Shown: positions 14,347 to 57,962 of the stretch, in pieces | Position numbering within the stretch: position 1 is the stretch's first letter | Layout of the letters: each line of letters starts with the position of its first letter | NCBI GenBank assembly: GCA_951406725.2 | Contig: OX597832.1 | Coordinates: 40,734,001 to 40,798,000, forward strand | Length of the DNA stretch: 64,000 bases | Reading direction: 5' to 3' | Source: Octopus vulgaris | Taxonomy: Eukaryota | Made by a program: the position numbers and the translations under genes | The notes under the pieces: generated by a model | The model's input: the letters and a program-made list of their open reading frames with translations, nothing else | Databases searched by the model: none | Told to the model about the DNA's origin: nothing

Positions 14347-14554
14347 CAGACTTTTATTCATTAATCTAAAATAGATTGTTGCAGTAAGTACCAGTCATGA
14401 ATTAAGATTAATTCAGTCAACTTTGGTTGATGGTAAATCTCCTTGTGATTTCCATATCTGTTGAGATCAAGTTACATAGTGACAGCTTCCTCACCCCCGC
14501 CCCTTAACCTTATGGTATCTATCCTGTCACTATAGTGAGGCTCATCCCATCACA

Positions 14555-14745
14555 AGCTAAATAGGAAGCATTTATGTGGTCACTTTTCATGCTAGAAATA
14601 GCAACCAAATCTCAAATCACTTTATATTATCTGCAAAATTGGAAGTTCACACTAGAGAATGTAGTCCTCAGACATAGGATGATCGTGTCTGGAATATCTT
14701 TGATAATAGGTCTGCTGGGTCAGGACTGACCTAGCGCTAAATAAC
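14555..14745 (+). mobile_element. Family E short repeat (no tRNA head), old copy
   Basis: TGCTAGAAATAGCAACCAAATCTC...GACCTAGCGCTAAATAAC; homologous to 46174-46361, 47528-47728 and 55226-55458. Confidence 0.7.
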
Positions 14746-15089
14746 CGCTGATCTCGGTCAATATTTCTTCTCCAGTATTTCTTCTCTCTGTTTCTCTCTC
14801 TCTCTCTCTGGAAAAAATTCATTGTCTAACTTAAAGAGGAATGGTCTACACCAGGTTCGATACTCAAGACAACCCATCTGTTATGATGGCACCCCTCTGA
14901 TTTGAACTCCCATCTCCTGATGAGTTGAGGGCTCAAGGCTAGTGGTTCACCCATGCACTGCTGATTAACCAAGCTATTGTGTCTATAATATAATTGTCTT
15001 CTTTACGTTGAATTAATAAAGAAGTTTCTTTATTCTTGCTTGACCAGTTAAAAATGACAACCAAATCTCTCTCAGAAGGACATACTCTT

Positions 15090-29662: not shown

Positions 29663-30499
29663 AAATTATGGGTGTGTGCATATATTATTTATTTGAATAT
29701 TTCATGATGTATGTTGGTCGTTTATTGATATATTGGCAGTTGGGTAAGACCTGATCTTCCAACTGCTGGTGCTCCTCCCTCGCAGGGAAAAATTACATTT
29801 TAATTAAAATATTACCAAAGTAGACTTTTTTTCCTCTTTCAATTTATCAATTCTTATTTTCAGTTGTGGTTTTTCTTCCATAAATTGTTATCATTCATAT
29901 TTGTTTTTTCTTTCTGTGTTCTCATCCAACTGGGTTCAATTTTTGCCTCTCTTCCTTCGAGGGTTGGTAAAATAAGTACTAGTTACGTACTGGGGGTCGA
30001 TTTAATCAACTGCACCTTTTTTACTGCACCCAAGTGTGTGTTTTTGTGATAGTTTCTGAAATGATAATAATAATAATAATAATAAAAATACTACTGCTGT
30101 GGTAAGTAGCTTGCTTACCAACCACAGGGTTCTGGGTTCCACATCGATCATTTTCAGCCTTATCTCTCTGCAGATTTCAAGATTTTGGCCAAGGTGTTAG
30201 CAAAAAAAAATTGGCACTTGTGTTGGTAACTTTATTGATGATGCACAAACATGCTATATCATAGAGAGCTTGAGTAAGGAACTTGGCATGGGTGGGGCTC
30301 AGGTGAATGCTTTTGATAGTGTGCTGGTCACCAATACTTGGTGGATGTCCTCACAACAACCAGTTTTAGTCCTACCTTCAGCGGCTAAATTGTTGCAGTG
30401 TACAGCACCATCTGCTTAGTGGTTAGGATAAATTCCTGCTGCTATTTTTAGCAAGTTGGACAAATCTCATTGGCTCATGTTAGTTTCGAGAATGGGTGT

Positions 30500-45305: not shown

Positions 45306-46173
45306 ACGAAAGTAGATGAGCATTGAGGAGAAGACCTCCTCCATCAATAAAAACAACTACAAATCTGGTGTCTAACAGCAATGAAATATTATTGATTTAT
45401 CAACTTTTTATCTTCATCTTTCCACCACCACCACCACCACCACCACCACCCTCTTCACTCGCCGTCGCTTCCCCACCCCCCACCATCCCTCCCTTTAATG
45501 GCGAAACTCTTTAGCTTCAATTCAGTTCGGTTGGTGTGTTTGGTGCCCTCTGATTAAACTTCTGTGTTAAATCTACTGTGATGATGATGATGATGACGAC
45601 GATGATGGTGGTGGTGGTGGTGGCAGTGGTGAATGGTAGCTGCAGTGGTGATTGCTGGTTGTTATTTTCTAACATTTTTCAATAAACAAACAATAACGCT
45701 AGTAATATTAATAACAATCAGACATGTCTCTTTGGTTAAGAAGCTCACTTTGCATCTACGTAATCTTGTGTTCAGTTTCACCATGAAGCACCCTTGGGTA
45801 AGTGTCCCCCACTATAGCCCAAAGCCAACCAGTAACCCATGAGTGAAGTTGGTAGACAGAAACTGTGTGGAACTTTGCCTTTCATCCTTTCGGGGTCGAT
45901 TAAATAAGTACCAGTTATGCACTGGGGTTGATATAATTAGTTAGCCCTGGTCTACAGTAGAAGACACTTGCCCAAGCTCCTACACATTGGGACCAAACCT
46001 GAAATCATCTGGTTTCAAGGCAAACTTGTTAACCACGTAACCATGCCTGTGTCTATTATCACACAATTTTACTATACATGAAATTCCCTCTTCCCATTGG
46101 GCATAACTTTGTACCTCATGTCCTCTTGTCTTGTGCAGCTAATAGCTCTATCAAAGCTGTTTTGCTTGTTATT

Positions 46174-46361
46174 TTGTTGTTGATTAAACCTTGGTTAGGC
46201 TTTATGAATAATGTCTTTGACCAAAGACTCTCCGGTTTTGACCATCCCGTCTTGTATATCTAAGACTACATTGTGCAATGTCTCATTCACTTTTTAAGAT
46301 TTGAGGGAGATTTAGCTGCTAATTCTTGCAGATCTGCACAACCACATAGAAGCTCGTTGGT
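46174..46361 (-). mobile_element. Family E short repeat
   Basis: GAGGGAGATTTAGCTGCTAATTCTTGCAG...; (CAA)n tail on the minus strand. Confidence 0.75.
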
Positions 46362-47527
46362 TTTTATGTTTGTGTTTGAAAACTTGCTTCTACTGCTGCC
46401 TCTGCTGCTGCCTCTGTGGTTCTCTGGAGAATCCAACTTCAATATTGAATTTGTCTGAAAGTCTGGTGAATGGTTTAGTATTTGGCAGCAAACACTGAGT
46501 TAATTATTCAATAGAATAAACAGCAATGATAATTCCTTACATTGATGGCACCACAAGAGCCACCGTTTTGGTAGCCGGCGTTTTAGTCAATTGAATCGAT
46601 TCAGCAATATCAATGGAAGGACTAATACACAATTGCTTGACCTCTCAGAAATAACAACCAAATTACCATCAAACTGCAGCTTACAATCTTAAATAGAAAG
46701 ACAGGACACATTTGACATTGTTGTCATTCATATAATAAAATGACTGAATAGTCACGTATGGGACTCCTTTGATGATAAATCTGTTCAGTCAGGCTGGTTT
46801 GAAGTTAAACCGGAACCGATAAGTGATGGGGGAGGGGAGAGGAAAGGTAAATATGAGTTCCTGTTGTTGTTTCGCTCTGATTGAACAAATCTTTTATCAA
46901 AGATGCTTAGGTTGTGTTTGTCCCATCCCTGCCTTTTCTTATGAAGATTAGAGAGTGAGATTATAGTGTGATGGAGGAAAAAGACAACAGAAAAAGAAGC
47001 AACAAGAGAAAGAAATACAGAAAGGCCTTACCTTGGTGAAATCAGCGGTCACTCTCATGAATTCAACACATCTTGTCGCTCTGCCCTCTTTGCTGGAACT
47101 GACCACACGTGCTTGCTGACCACACGTGCTTCCTGCCCATGCATGCCCCTTTCACTCTTCTGCTGGCCCCTGCAAGCCTTACCTCTGCCCACCTCATCTG
47201 TCATCCTCTCCACCAACACCACATAGCTCATCACAGCCCATAACACTGCCAACACCACAGAGATTTTGAGGGTAATTTTACTGCTATTCTTAGCAGGTCA
47301 AAAGATCAAGTGGGATGGAGGTAGGAGTGCTTTCTTGCTGGCTTGATTCAACCCCGGTGTTTGCTGAAGGGATTAACTTGACTACTTAACTAGACAAGGG
47401 TCAGAACGACTATTTTGTTTAGTGGATTGACTACAGTTGTATGTCAGAGGAAGTGGAGGATGTCATCACTAAACTCACATCACCAATGAATTACTGATAT
47501 GCATATTATTATAGTTGTTGCTGTCAT

Positions 47528-47728
47528 TGTTATTAAGCCCCAGGCCGAGCAAACAAACCTATGATCAAGAGCATTCCAGTCATGACCATCATGTCTTATC
47601 ATGTGCTGGGAATCTTGGCTCACCTTGTCCAGTGTGTCCTTTTCTAAGATAGTGGGTGTGATTTGAGGGAAGTTTTCTTACTATTTCTAGTAGGTTAATT
47701 GACCACATGGGAGATCCCTTGTTGGCTC
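47528..47728 (-). mobile_element. Family E short repeat
   Basis: Minus-strand 5' end GAGCCAACAAGGGA...; 3' end ...CCTGGGGCTTAATAACAA. Confidence 0.75.
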
Positions 47729-48104
47729 ATATCATGATTCAGGTAGTTATTTATAAAGCCCATCTTGGCTGGTTGAGCTGTACTTGTGGTTTATGAGCTG
47801 ATGGTGTTTGGTTTTAGTTTAACTATGATATACTAATGAAGTATTTATAATAGAACCATCATGAAGTCTAGATTCTGTGGAATAGGGTTTGATTTTGAAA
47901 GCACATTGTGATCCTACCTGCCGAGTCTTCACTTACCAGTGTTGCTGCAATAATACTGATGTGATGTATAATAGTTAATATATCTAATATATCACACAAT
48001 ATATCAGCAAGTATTTGTTGGCAAAGTGATGATGAAACAATTGTAGTATTATGCAATAAAATGTGTTTGTTGAATCCAACCTCTCTTGTTTACACTTTTA
48101 AATG

Positions 48105-48711: not shown

Positions 48712-50504
48712 TAATGTCTTTTAGCTTAGATCTACTGGGTCAGGATTTAACGTAGATCTTTAGCAACAATAGCAAGAACAATTGAATGCAAAGATTGTTC
48801 CTATGCAACTGTTTCTCATTATGATTCTATGACTATTTATTTTTCTGTCTTTTGTTTCGTTCTGTGTACTGTACAGGTACAGGTAGACATCATTGCTGTC
48901 TTTCTTTATTCGACTTAGTCCTGCTTTCTGTCCCGTGAATTTCCTTTTCTTCTACTTTTCCCAACAGGTTGTTGTGTACCTGAACACTGTATACAAGAAG
49001 CTCATTATTACTAATTAACGTAAGGCAACGAACTAGCAGAGTCATTAGCACACTGGGCTAAATGCTTAACGGCATTTCATCTGTTTTTATGTTCTGAGTT
49101 CAAAATGTCACGGGGGTTGACTTTGCCTCTCATCCTTTAGGAGTAGATGCAATAAGTACCAGTTGCATAGTGGGGTTGATGTAATTGACTTAACCCCTCT
49201 CCTAAAATTGCTGGCCTTGTGTCAAAATTTGAAACCATTATTATTAGTTGATGTAATTACTGTTGGTTGTGGCCAGGGTTGGAGACCATTCAATATGATT
49301 ATGATAACGACTCCTAATTTTGGTGTAAGGTCGCACAGAAAGGCTGTTGTTATTTTGTGGGATTTGAACTCAGAATGTAAAGGGATGCAACCAGAGATTT
49401 TTGTTATTTTTGTTCTATTATCTCTGCCAATCACAATCTTCAATGCAATGATGATGATAATTATTGCTTCACATGTTGGCACAAGGCAGCAGTTTTAGGG
49501 GTCTGGGTATTTGTTGATTACATCCATCCCTGTATTTGACTGTTAATTTTATCAAAACCAAAAGGACAAAATGCAAAGTTGACCTTTGCAGGATTTGAAC
49601 TCAGAATGTAAAGATCTGGATGAAACATATTGCAAGTCATTTTTCTGATGCTCTAACCGTTCTGCCAACTTGCTGCCTTTGTTTCAAATTTTGGCACAAG
49701 GCCAGCACTTTATTATTTTATTGACCCTGGTGAAATGAAAGGCAAAATTTACCTTGGTTGGATTTGAACACAGAATGTAAAGTCAGAGCAACAAACACTG
49801 CAAAATATTTTCCTAACATGTTAATGATTCTACCAGCTCACTTTCTTATGATGATGGTGATTGTGATGGTAAACAAACCATCCCTTAATGTTTAGGCCTG
49901 ACCAAGATGACCCACAATAAAATGCATTTAGCTGTGATCATACTGCCTTTTTTTCTTTTCTTATATGGCATAGTGTATCTCTGATTACATTATTCAATGT
50001 GTCCCAGTTTGGAAGAGATTTGATTGCTAGTTCTCCGGAGAGAGGGAGACAAACTGCTGTGATGTTTGTAGAGATTATTAGAAGTGAGTTGGATTGAAGT
50101 AGCTTGTCAGGAATTGAAACCGTCTCCTTGAGTTCAGTGGCTGGCTTTTATACTTCTTGCCTCTTATGATGCAGAATCAACCTAATACGCCCTGTTTGGG
50201 TGTGTGTTTTTTACCTTGTTTGCATGCTTTTTTGTACCATATATACGATATATAAATGCATTTACATGTATGTATATTCATGTGTACGTATATACATTAC
50301 GTGTGTGTGTGTGTGTGTGTGTGTAAGGCGGTGCTCCAGCATGGCCGCAGTCAAATTACCGAACACAAATAAAAGAATAAAAGATTACATGTGTGTGTGT
50401 GTGTATATTCGCGCACGCACGCACACACACGCACACACACGCATACACAACATATAATAAAGACTGTATTGAGTTCTGCAATCTCTCAATAGTAGTGCAA
50501 CTAT

Positions 50505-54470: not shown

Positions 54471-55225
54471 CAAAAGGTTGGACCCCCAACCAGGCCTTTC
54501 ACAATACCCTTAAAGCCAGTAACCGTTCAGTACCTCCTCATGTGTACACACACACACACACAAATTGCCATCAGTATTTTAATGTCCACTTTTCCATGCT
54601 TGGTATGAATTATACAGAACTAATTTAGCCAGATGTTCTATGGCCAGTTGCCCTTCCAAGGTAATAAATACTTGCCCATAACCGTTTATCTTTTCATAGG
54701 AGGTTGGAAACGAGGGACACCATATAAATGTGTGTGTGTTTGTAAGTCATCATCATCGTTTAACATCCGCTTTCCATGCTAGCATGGGTTGGACGGTTCA
54801 ACTGGGGTCTGTGAAGCCAGAAGGCTGCACCAGGCCCAGTCAGATCTGGCAGTGTATCTACAGCTGGCATGTTGGATAAGTATGTATGTATTCACACACA
54901 TAGTGTATATAAATTTGTGGATAATAACAATGGATTTCAACACCTGCACAAGAGTTCAAATATGTAAATGAGAGGGTCTCAGTTGATTGAACTGAGCCCA
55001 CTCGGTGACTGGTATTATTAGCATCTCAACTGACCAAAACTATGAACATTAGCACAAAACCCAGCAGCATTTCTTCAACCCAAACAATCCTGCCAGTATA
55101 CAAACAAAACATTAATCATTTAACTATTTCAGTCATGTGTGGATTCCCAGTCTCTCTCTCCACAACAAACAACACAACACGTCAGAGACTGTGCACAGGC
55201 CACACCTACACATCACCTACAAAAT

Positions 55226-55458
55226 GAGCCAATGCAGTTTCTCCCTACGTGGTTGCTCAATCTGCTAGAAATAACAGCCAAAACTTCTTTGAATTGCACT
55301 ATTGTGTTTTTCGACAAAATTTTTGTTTTCTAAGTGACATGTTGGATAATGTGTTCCTAGGTTCTCTGCATATAGGGAAATGATGGGATGGGATGATCAT
55401 GATCACGGACATCACAGGTCTACTTGGTGTGGGTTGACCTGGGGCTAAACAACAACAA
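55226..55458 (+). mobile_element. Family E short repeat (best end-to-end copy)
   Basis: GAGCCAATG...CCCTACGTGGTTGCTCAATCTGCTAGAAATAACAGCCAAA...GACCTGGGGCTAAACAACAACAA. Confidence 0.78.
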
Positions 55459-55930
55459 TACTTGATGAAAGTGCATCTGGCTGTGTGAAAAGCTCAACTC
55501 GCTCAGTTCTTGCCAGCTCTGTCCTTGCTCATTCACTCGGTCCAATTTCCAGTTCTGTCCAAATCCAAAGATCACTAAGACTGTTATTCAACTGAAATCT
55601 GTGGTACTTAGTAGCTCATTCCCCCTCTTTCTGCTACTTTTACCAGTAAGTATTTTTTATAAATGTCCCCTTCCCAAGTTTTGCTCCCCACAAAACAAAA
55701 ATAGCCGTGGCTGTGTGGTAAGAAGCTTGCTTCCCAACTGCATGGTTCCAGGTTCAGTTCCACTGCATGGCATTACATTTGACAGAAAAATCTGAATGCT
55801 AAAGGCTTAAATATTTCATTTCTAATAAAAAAAAAAAGTCATGTCCCACCCCCAAATACACACTTACCCCTTGTGTCCCCTTGACAGTTATCGCCCACTT
55901 GTGTGTGTCTTTGTTTATCCGAACCAGTGT

Positions 55931-56476: not shown

Positions 56477-57962
56477 TTCTAGAATATATTTGTAATAATT
56501 TTGGGCCCATCAGGCATCTTCTGTGCTATTGTTTGATATGCTAAAAATCATCATCGTTTAATGTCCGTTTTCCATGCTAGCATGGGTTGGACAGTTTGAC
56601 TGGGGTCTGGGAAGCCAGGAGGCCGCACCAGACTCCAGTCTGATCTGGCAGTGTTTCTACAGCTGGATTCCCTTCCTAACACCAATCACTCTGTAAGTGT
56701 AGCTAAAAATGTTAATATAATTTCCTTTAAACTACACTCTACCTAGAAATAATGTAGTCCACACCACACTATATTGAAATGAATATGGGATGATCAGGGA
56801 AGGACTCTCTTTGACCATAGATTTGCTCAATCAGAGCTGATTAACCATTAGGAGATGACAGGGCCGATCTGTTGGCCAAAAAGTTGAATGACGAAGAAGA
56901 TTGAATTAGTTCATTCAATTTCTTACAAGAATATATATAATTACATATATGTAAAATAATTACTTTACTTTTTATAATTTTTGTTGAAGAATAAGTGCAT
57001 GCTCTTTGTAGGGCTTGTGAAAAGTAGACTAGGATGGGATTTGAACTCAGACAACAAAGAGCCAGAATAAAGCCTGTATTCTAGTCTGACATCCTTACAG
57101 TTGGGTCAGTACTTTTTATTGACTCTGACAGGATAAAAGTTGACCCCTGTGGAATTTGAACTCGGAGCACAGAGACATGAAACAAACACCAAGGGGTATT
57201 CTAATTGATGCTCTGACAACTCTAGGACTTCATTTCTCAATTTGTCCCTCTTTTATTTTTTAAAAGACATCAGAGCACAGCTGATGGAAATTTGGCTGCT
57301 ATTTCTAGCAGATTGAGCAACTACTGAGACTGCTTCTTTTACTTTGGAATAGCTACTCAAAATAGGATGTATCAGTATCTCCATCATTGTCTTTACTGTT
57401 ATAAATGGTGATAACGGAATATTCATTGTTTATTTCCTGTACAGTGTAACCAAAATATTGGAATTTACGAGAAACCTGATACTTAATAGGTGTTAGTCAT
57501 CACTCAGAGGTGATAATTAGCAGCATCCTTGCAGAACTGAAGGATTCTGATACAGCAGTAGTGCCTTCTTGATCCTACCAGAACCTAAGGTATTGGCTGC
57601 TTTATCAAGAAAAGATTCCTGATGTACTTCAGAGAAACTTAAGAAGTGAACTGATTGAGGTAATATCCTAAATACCCCCTGATACCTTCTCTTCTTCTGG
57701 GTACTATTATACCAGTCCAGGATTTGAGAATTCTTCAGCTGGGTGGTAGATTTAATCCTTTAGTATTTAAACTGGTCATATCCATAAATATTCTACCAGC
57801 AAATGCAGGTCTTTACCGATGGTATAATATATATAAAAAAATGGACCCCAAAAACAAAGGGCTGAGAACAGTAATAGTTGTACATTCTGCTTTATCTCCA
57901 TCCATTTCAAAGAGAAAGTTCCTTGCTATAAGCATTCTATTTGAAAGTACATTTGCAATCTT

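Follow-up and report, generated by a model that had tools for sequence, protein, structure and literature searches.

An old and very abundant octopus repeat with an HDV-like 5' head and a (CAA)n tail

Short non-coding retroposons that begin with an HDV-like fold are known from trypanosomatids, where NARTc is paired with the LINE L1Tc and RIME with ingi, and where SIDERs have also been described (PMC3185411, PMC4035085). Cleavage by L1TcRz takes place at C1, and its P1.1 consists of one pair (PMC3185411); all of the active ribozymes of the trypanosomatid ingi clade that were mapped likewise cleave at C1 (PMC4035085). A second group of relatives is formed by the bipartite elements of LINEs from the RTE, Ingi, Vingi and R2 clades, including the SIDEs of R2, which have no RNA-gene head, consist of two ends only and measure ~200 bp (PMC5786205, PMC3414825). 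The ribozymes of R2 show the helix order discussed below, tolerate mismatches at the top of P1 and have a variable P4 (PMC3774820).

Family E, described here from a window of 64 kb of the Octopus vulgaris genome (the whole stretch of DNA analysed) and from its copies elsewhere in that genome, resembles both groups. With the trypanosomatid elements it shares a short non-coding body, an HDV-like fold that starts from C1, a single P1.1 pair, tandem copies and the presence of Ingi-type LINEs in the same genome. It differs from them in its animal host, its ~175,000 fragments, its (CAA)n tail, a P3 of 2 bp and not 3 bp, and the lack of a partner LINE recognizable at the sequence level, and in being known from sequence alone. 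Like the bipartite elements, it has two ends only, no RNA-gene head and a length of ~200 bp; nevertheless, the sharing of 5' and 3' sequence with a LINE that defines those elements was seen here for the sister families A and B and not for E. R2 is rDNA-specific and its ribozymes have a long J1/2, whereas E is dispersed and has a J1/2 of 2 nt. The kind of element is already known (NARTc/RIME/SIDE), and family E is a further case of it. Its scale, a fold that departs from the canonical one and the surrounding Ingi system make it notable.

Literature searches for an HDV-like or Ingi element of octopus or other cephalopods returned nothing relevant; repeat libraries lay outside these searches, so family E may already be named. 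The words Ingi, Vingi and ribozyme are absent from the text and supplement of the 2026 octopus repeat annotation, and look-ups of the motif in the supplements of PMC5786205 and PMC9115989 (the latter in part) gave no match.

Copies, ends and insertion sites of family E

A sequence-only reading of the window had named nine places, four main copies and five fragments, as members of one repeat family. All nine were found by a genome-wide profile, which was built from the matches to the copy at 47528 and from 60 random 10-kb stretches; the reversed window gave 0 matches. The copy around which this report is organized is full length and decayed (55225..55458, plus strand; profile match 55224-55459, E 6.5e-37), interrupted by ~30 nt of T-rich inserted sequence around 55300-55335. 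Other full-length decayed copies lie at 14552..14745 (plus, E 6.6e-38) and at 47524..47731 (minus), the latter with its candidate catalytic C replaced and with an E value (5.6e-50) inflated by its use as the seed of the first search. Near full-length decayed copies were located at 46173..46362 (minus, E 1.2e-30) and at 46610..46816 (plus, E 2.3e-30), the second of which had been taken for a fragment. The remaining places correspond to a head fragment (47265..47311, minus, E 2.5e-6), a body fragment (49893..50034, minus, E 3.3e-14), a head-plus-body fragment (57219..57330, minus, E 7.8e-14) and a very short, weak match (30437..30463, minus, E 0.047). The profile added two copies, a body fragment at 56713..56840 (plus, E 1.3e-12) and a head fragment at 15009..15074 (plus, E 9.3e-7), so that five copies of the window stand on the plus strand and six on the minus strand. 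Several other abundant SINE-like families cover about half of positions 300-63900, as seen by self-BLAST; in a separate masking step 48% of the window was masked.

Outside the window, a genome search with the 47528 copy gave 40 scored matches at 69-83% identity, the query itself excluded. The first profile found 40 matches in 600 kb, amounting to ~1% of the bases; the reversed control gave 0. When a locus holding a tandem array (L053) was left out, 37 matches were counted in 59 random loci (590 kb), 12/37 of them near full length; scaled from this sample to the 2.8-Gb genome, the family comprises ~175,000 fragments, ~57,000 of them near full length. Family E is an old, very abundant, non-coding interspersed repeat of ~220 bp with a (CAA)n tail, the tail being as the sequence-only reading had described it. 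In 31 unbiased heads the divergence at non-CpG positions was 0.27 (Jukes-Cantor 0.35), roughly 30%. Amplification ended long ago, very roughly 80-100 My, since a Jukes-Cantor distance of ~0.35 is read on the octopus calibration given in PMC13282606 (0.2 = 56 My); the figure is probably inflated by alignment noise.

Tandem arrangements were also observed. The excluded locus contains about seven E units of ~172 bp together with a minisatellite of 37 bp that derives from the E body (L053:2580-4620). Additionally, the 3' ~130 bp of the family form tandem arrays, less variable than its dispersed copies, at L100-L105 (G000:C28-C30); these are a satellite derived from family E on small chromosomes. 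A pattern scan of metagenomes yielded two matches, neither with flanking family E sequence, which were taken as chance.

The consensus is short and non-coding and has no Pol III head. As had been proposed, A and B boxes are missing from its sense strand; no tRNA was found in the 64-kb window, and neither a tRNA or 5S head nor any conserved sequence lies upstream of the consensus. Conservation begins abruptly, and the starts of the copies cluster at profile columns 2-12. The 5' end had been placed at the G of a shared GAGCCAA; of the seven window copies in the alignment, just two show this start, and the element begins one base further upstream, at a C. The base before GAGCC is C or T in 75/94 copies (background 51%, p 4.5e-9) and in 25/31 copies chosen by a pattern starting at G, and together with the G that follows it shows the decay pattern of a CpG. 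The second base before GAGCC is A in 53/94 copies, and beyond it the alignment of these 94 copies revealed no common upstream sequence. We read the A as target and the C as +1, because an A also precedes the complete short derivatives of the sister families; a C derived from the target is the alternative. One copy (L110) shows a clear TSD (10/10), with a start ambiguous by one base.

Towards the other end, the body contains a long hairpin followed by a 3' stem-loop ahead of GGGGCTAAA(CAA)n, according to a fold computed without a shuffle control. In the 55226 copy the stem-loop occupies 55416..55440 (plus strand) and is predicted to be the element recognized by the reverse transcriptase; the 3' part of the consensus folds at -19.3 kcal/mol, again without a shuffle control. 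It is followed by GGGGCTAAA and the tail at 55441..55458 (plus), the last ~12 nt of which match the ends of the Ingi-like families A and B.

The motif CA-N-CA-N occurred within 30 nt upstream of 34 of 110 E copies on the sense strand and of 12 on the antisense strand (p 0.0013), a bias confined to these 30 nt and missing further out. Neighbouring E copies formed 15 tail-to-head pairs as against 2 on opposite strands. The overall TSD signal was weak, with a 12-mer mean of 7.81 versus a null of 7.40+-0.14 in 47 copies.

The reconstructed head and its decay

A CpG-corrected consensus of the head was computed by script from 95 copies and examined with a home-made HDV descriptor. It scored 27, the maximum of 20,000 dinucleotide shuffles being 17.5, and its reverse strand gave no fit. 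The HDV-like order of helices (P1-P2-P3-L3-P1'-P1.1-P4-J4/2-P2') put forward by the sequence-only reading was thus borne out for the consensus by the descriptor, but its register was rejected as the best fit: with G as +1, P3 is left with at most one pair. In the best register P1 has seven positions from C+1, with six Watson-Crick pairs and one C-C mismatch at position 6. J1/2 is 2 nt long and P2 has 7/7 pairs, while P3 has 2 bp instead of the 3 bp expected of an HDV-like ribozyme, a third pair (G-U) being possible solely by sacrificing pairs of P1 and P2. L3 is TCTACGT, P1.1 a single U-A and P4 a 6/6 helix with a GAAA loop; J4/2 is CCAAAT (6 nt), with the candidate catalytic C present in 92/126 copies. 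The total amounts to 22 pairs. An HDV-like ribozyme is expected to have a P1 of 6-7 bp counted from the cleavage site, an L3 of 7-8 nt with conserved pyrimidines and a CG, a P1.1 of 1-2 bp and, in J4/2, a catalytic C followed by N-R-A; the consensus agrees with each of these. We considered whether some copies form an unrecognized subfamily with more nucleotides at the P3/P1 junction; none of 126 copies has an insertion there, and the idea was discarded. Rfam searches of genomic copies gave no match in the window at gathering level and none in 10 loci at E<=10. In the relevant part of PMC3774820, a C-C mismatch in P1 is linked to weak cleavage in another HDV-like ribozyme, a quarter of the R2 ribozymes have mismatches at the top of P1, and P3 defects are tolerated in R2 as well. 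It is very likely that the head of family E descends from an HDV-like ribozyme.

When the consensus columns were mapped onto the plus-strand copy at 55226, the HDV-like head was found to span 55225..55290. The +1 lies at 55225 (ancestral C, now T), the 5' strand of P1 at 55225-55231, L3 at 55244-55250, P1' at 55253-55259, the A that partners in P1.1 at 55260, P4 with its GAAA loop at 55262-55277, J4/2 at 55278-55283 with the candidate catalytic C at 55278, and P2' at 55284-55290. This copy keeps 16/22 pairs; its P2 is broken and failed the criterion set for that helix. The copies at 14552, 46173 and 46610 retain 12/22, 16/22 and 12/22 pairs, and the range over the window copies is 12-16/22. 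No window copy fits the HDV-like descriptor, and a lenient seven-point check of the fold was passed by 0/7 aligned window copies and by 1/126 copies overall. The window copies are broken and are predicted to cut nothing today; the one at 55226 is a fossil.

Covariation among the copies of family E showed no convincing excess over chance. Double changes that keep a pair numbered 155 where 137 were expected in 95 copies, a ratio of 1.13; control column sets gave 1.00+-0.07, 14/500 of them reaching 1.13, as did 25/2,000 permutations, and the largest excess fell on the mutually paired CpGs of P1. An independent tool counted 33 double changes in 25 copies as against 28.3+-4.2, with 78/500 shuffles as high. 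Furthermore, the conservation of A/T columns was alike in stems (0.84), loops (0.83) and body (0.83). Stems decay like loops, which is neutral decay, and little covariation is expected because the copies are neutral. Two changes formerly taken as compensatory did not hold up: that in P4 of the 47528 copy is a pair of G>A and C>T changes, observed 6 times with 4.2 expected by chance, and the P2 example of the 55226 copy arises by shifting the register onto the A-run of J4/2, in other columns.

Ingi-like LINEs and the search for a driver

Three low-copy LINE families (A, B and C) came out of a search with PF00075. They bear an RNase H and a cysteine finger and end in a very short 3' UTR followed by a (CAA)n tail. 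In family B, one nearly complete but broken copy (L255:4310-8975, G000:C10, plus strand) is flanked by a 13-nt TSD; a 2A-like motif, PHD fingers, APE, RT and RNase H were recognized in it. The proteins related to it have a single ORF with APE, RT and RNase H, and 3/8 of those checked carry a 2A motif at the N-terminus. The layout of this copy matches the Ingi layout described in PMC3708506, and the three families are accordingly called Ingi-like, a label that comes from domain layout and not from a tree; a homolog search returned no clade names.

The heads of family B (first 65 nt) and family A (first ~95 nt) fit the HDV fold, with 0/1,500 shuffles doing so in each case; the descriptor had been widened after A and B were seen, so this fit is post hoc, and 5/9 of the A and B copies tested satisfied the widened version. 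Both heads have a 6-nt J4/2 of the form C-N-A-A-N-N, a single C-G pair as P1.1, a 3-bp P3 and an L3 of TCCCAG(T/A). P1 is split, by 1 nt in B and by a 36-nt insert of two hairpins in A, whose head has no P4. Both families have given rise to young, short, two-ended derivatives, of ~200 bp for A (L097, L233, L301, L313) and ~330 bp for B (L277, L278, L282, L285). In the B derivative P1 has been rebuilt into seven unbroken pairs, the first of them C-G, and the CGAA of J4/2 has been lost; both copies tested fail the descriptor. The 5' end of family C was not recovered, the search for it returning the query locus alone.

Families A and B and their derivatives have in common with E an HDV-like head placed exactly at the 5' end, the 6-nt J4/2, the (CAA)n tail and CA-N repeats as targets. 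They differ from it in being younger and rare (their 3' ends number from tens to about a hundred each), in their L3, 3-bp P3 and split P1, and in showing no significant identity with it. P1.1 and P2 differ in a compensatory manner between E and A/B, and the homology of the heads, which have the same architecture and no sequence match, is by structure only.

Many A and B copies carry their 5' head inverted beside a truncated 3' part (L202, L205, L207, L203, L302, L303, L307 and others), an arrangement that looks like twin-priming-like 5' inversion capturing the extreme 5' end. Separately, 5'-truncated copies of Ingi A or C stand right behind an E tail on the same strand at three loci (L227, L309, L312), which suggests that E and Ingi A/C have CA-N targets in common.

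The sequence-only reading had pointed to R2, R4 and RTE LINEs as elements whose 5' ends are defined by HDV-like ribozymes. No LINE with the head of E or its internal 3' 70 nt was found among 30 RT loci, 30 APE loci and the RNase H families; the RT loci (PF00078) represent CR1/RTE and the APE loci (PF14529) CR1, and since only young families were sampled, old partners may be missed. The young RTE and CR1 loci have other tails and no E ends, and no 3' end common to E and an RTE, CR1 or R4 LINE occurs in these 30 RT and 30 APE loci. One of the APE loci (L157) carries, ~700 nt upstream of its APE match, a (TAA)n-tailed 3' end, which from its protein end we take to be that of a Dong/R4-like element.

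No LINE sequence common to the tail-only or head-only copies of E was found beside them; one upstream stretch that such copies did have in common proved to be another SINE. Twenty ambiguous Ingi matches were all assigned to A, B or C. Outside the tail, E and the A/B derivatives do not match significantly in sequence, and at the 3' end E and A/B have in common only the last ~12 nt and the (CAA)n, a likeness that is not significant by profile score. The form of this end in E, GCT(A/T)AAC(AAC)n, matches the Ingi-like families. A 20-nt resemblance between the start of the E body and the 3' UTR of family A was likewise not significant. The driver of family E is likely an Ingi-clade LINE, because the same genome contains LINEs of Ingi-like layout that carry HDV-like heads and (CAA)n tails and have short derivatives of their own; the exact partner is absent from the loci searched.

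Origin and significance of family E

The proposal of a ribozyme-headed non-autonomous retroposon stands in part. The non-random fit of the consensus and the HDV-like heads on Ingi-like LINEs favour it, while the start, the register of P1 and the covariation that had been suggested were not upheld and the likely driver is Ingi-clade, not R2, R4 or RTE. In the model that we favour, and hold to be probable, family E is a two-ended passenger of an older Ingi-clade LINE, now largely erased, whose Pol II RNA was cut at C+1 and inserted by TPRT. A master copy would have been transcribed by Pol II, from host read-through or from a putative Pr77-like internal promoter. The head would have cleaved the RNA just 5' of C+1, as the ribozymes of L1Tc and ingi do, leaving a uniform 5' end. 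The LINE protein would then have bound the 3' stem-loop and tail, and the copy would have been inserted by target-primed reverse transcription, with a preference for CA-N repeats after an A. Such targets would include the tails of older copies, giving rise to head-to-tail pairs. Amplification would have ended long ago and been followed by neutral decay.

The defects of the head are also compatible with another account of the same origin, which we find rather unlikely: the head would have been crippled as a ribozyme already at the time of amplification, the 5' end being set by a Pr77-like internal Pol II promoter and the fold serving as a 5' shield or a protein-binding signal. P3 is cut to 2 bp and P1 has a C-C mismatch. 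In the bulged-P1 register of A and B, which is that of the sequence-only reading, E is 2 nt short and P3 collapses, with no restoring insertion in 126 copies. The short B derivative spread despite losing the CGAA of J4/2. According to PMC4035085, Pr77 acts as a promoter as well as a ribozyme, and the heads of several SIDERs show no activity. Nevertheless, the consensus keeps its 22 pairs, L3 and J4/2, the U-A of P1.1 in place of the C-G of A/B suggests that pairing was maintained, and R2 ribozymes tolerate mismatches at the top of P1 and defects of P3 (PMC3774820).

That a Vingi, RTE or R4/Dong LINE, and not Ingi, drove the ribozyme-headed mini-element we consider distinctly improbable. RTE, Ingi, Vingi and R2 all produce bipartite elements, the Vingi 5' end in the supplement of PMC5786205 appears CPEB3-like by eye, and the true partner LINE was not among the loci searched; yet E agrees with the Ingi-like families in its C+1 start, 6-nt J4/2 and GCT(A/T)AAC(AAC)n end, the young RTE and CR1 loci have other tails and nothing common to E, and the Dong/R4-like end has a (TAA)n tail. 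A plain SINE-like repeat whose hairpin-rich head is unrelated or due to chance would accord with the lack of an Rfam match and of covariation, and is very improbable, as 0/20,000 shuffles reach the score of the consensus, the fold begins at the element boundary and LINEs of the same genome carry analogous heads.

The suggestion that sense copies once cleaved a DGK pre-mRNA is unsupported, as no DGK exons were detected in the window, either by Pfam scans of 166/193 candidate frames or by motif search, and no window copy keeps the fold; exons of the DAGK accessory domain lie on the plus strand ~57 kb downstream of the window (G000:C19:40854881-40856403). For the DGK locus these are ordinary, dead copies in both orientations.

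On a bolder version of the passenger model, offered tentatively and open to real doubt, a Pol II passenger freed by its own active HDV-like variant (2-bp P3, C+1, U-A P1.1) would have reached SINE scale, ~1% of the octopus genome. Its Ingi relatives would extend the fold further (in A, a 36-nt insert in P1 and no P4), and tens of thousands of self-cutting RNAs may once have been present in cephalopod introns.

A large unclassified repeat of octopus is reclassified by these results, and three natural HDV-like variants are supplied that can be tested: one with a 2-bp P3, one with a split P1 and one with no P4. The design of trypanosome L1Tc/ingi, in which a ribozyme defines the 5' end and two-ended passengers are carried along, would be extended to a mollusc, where such a passenger may have become as numerous as a SINE with no Pol III promoter of its own.
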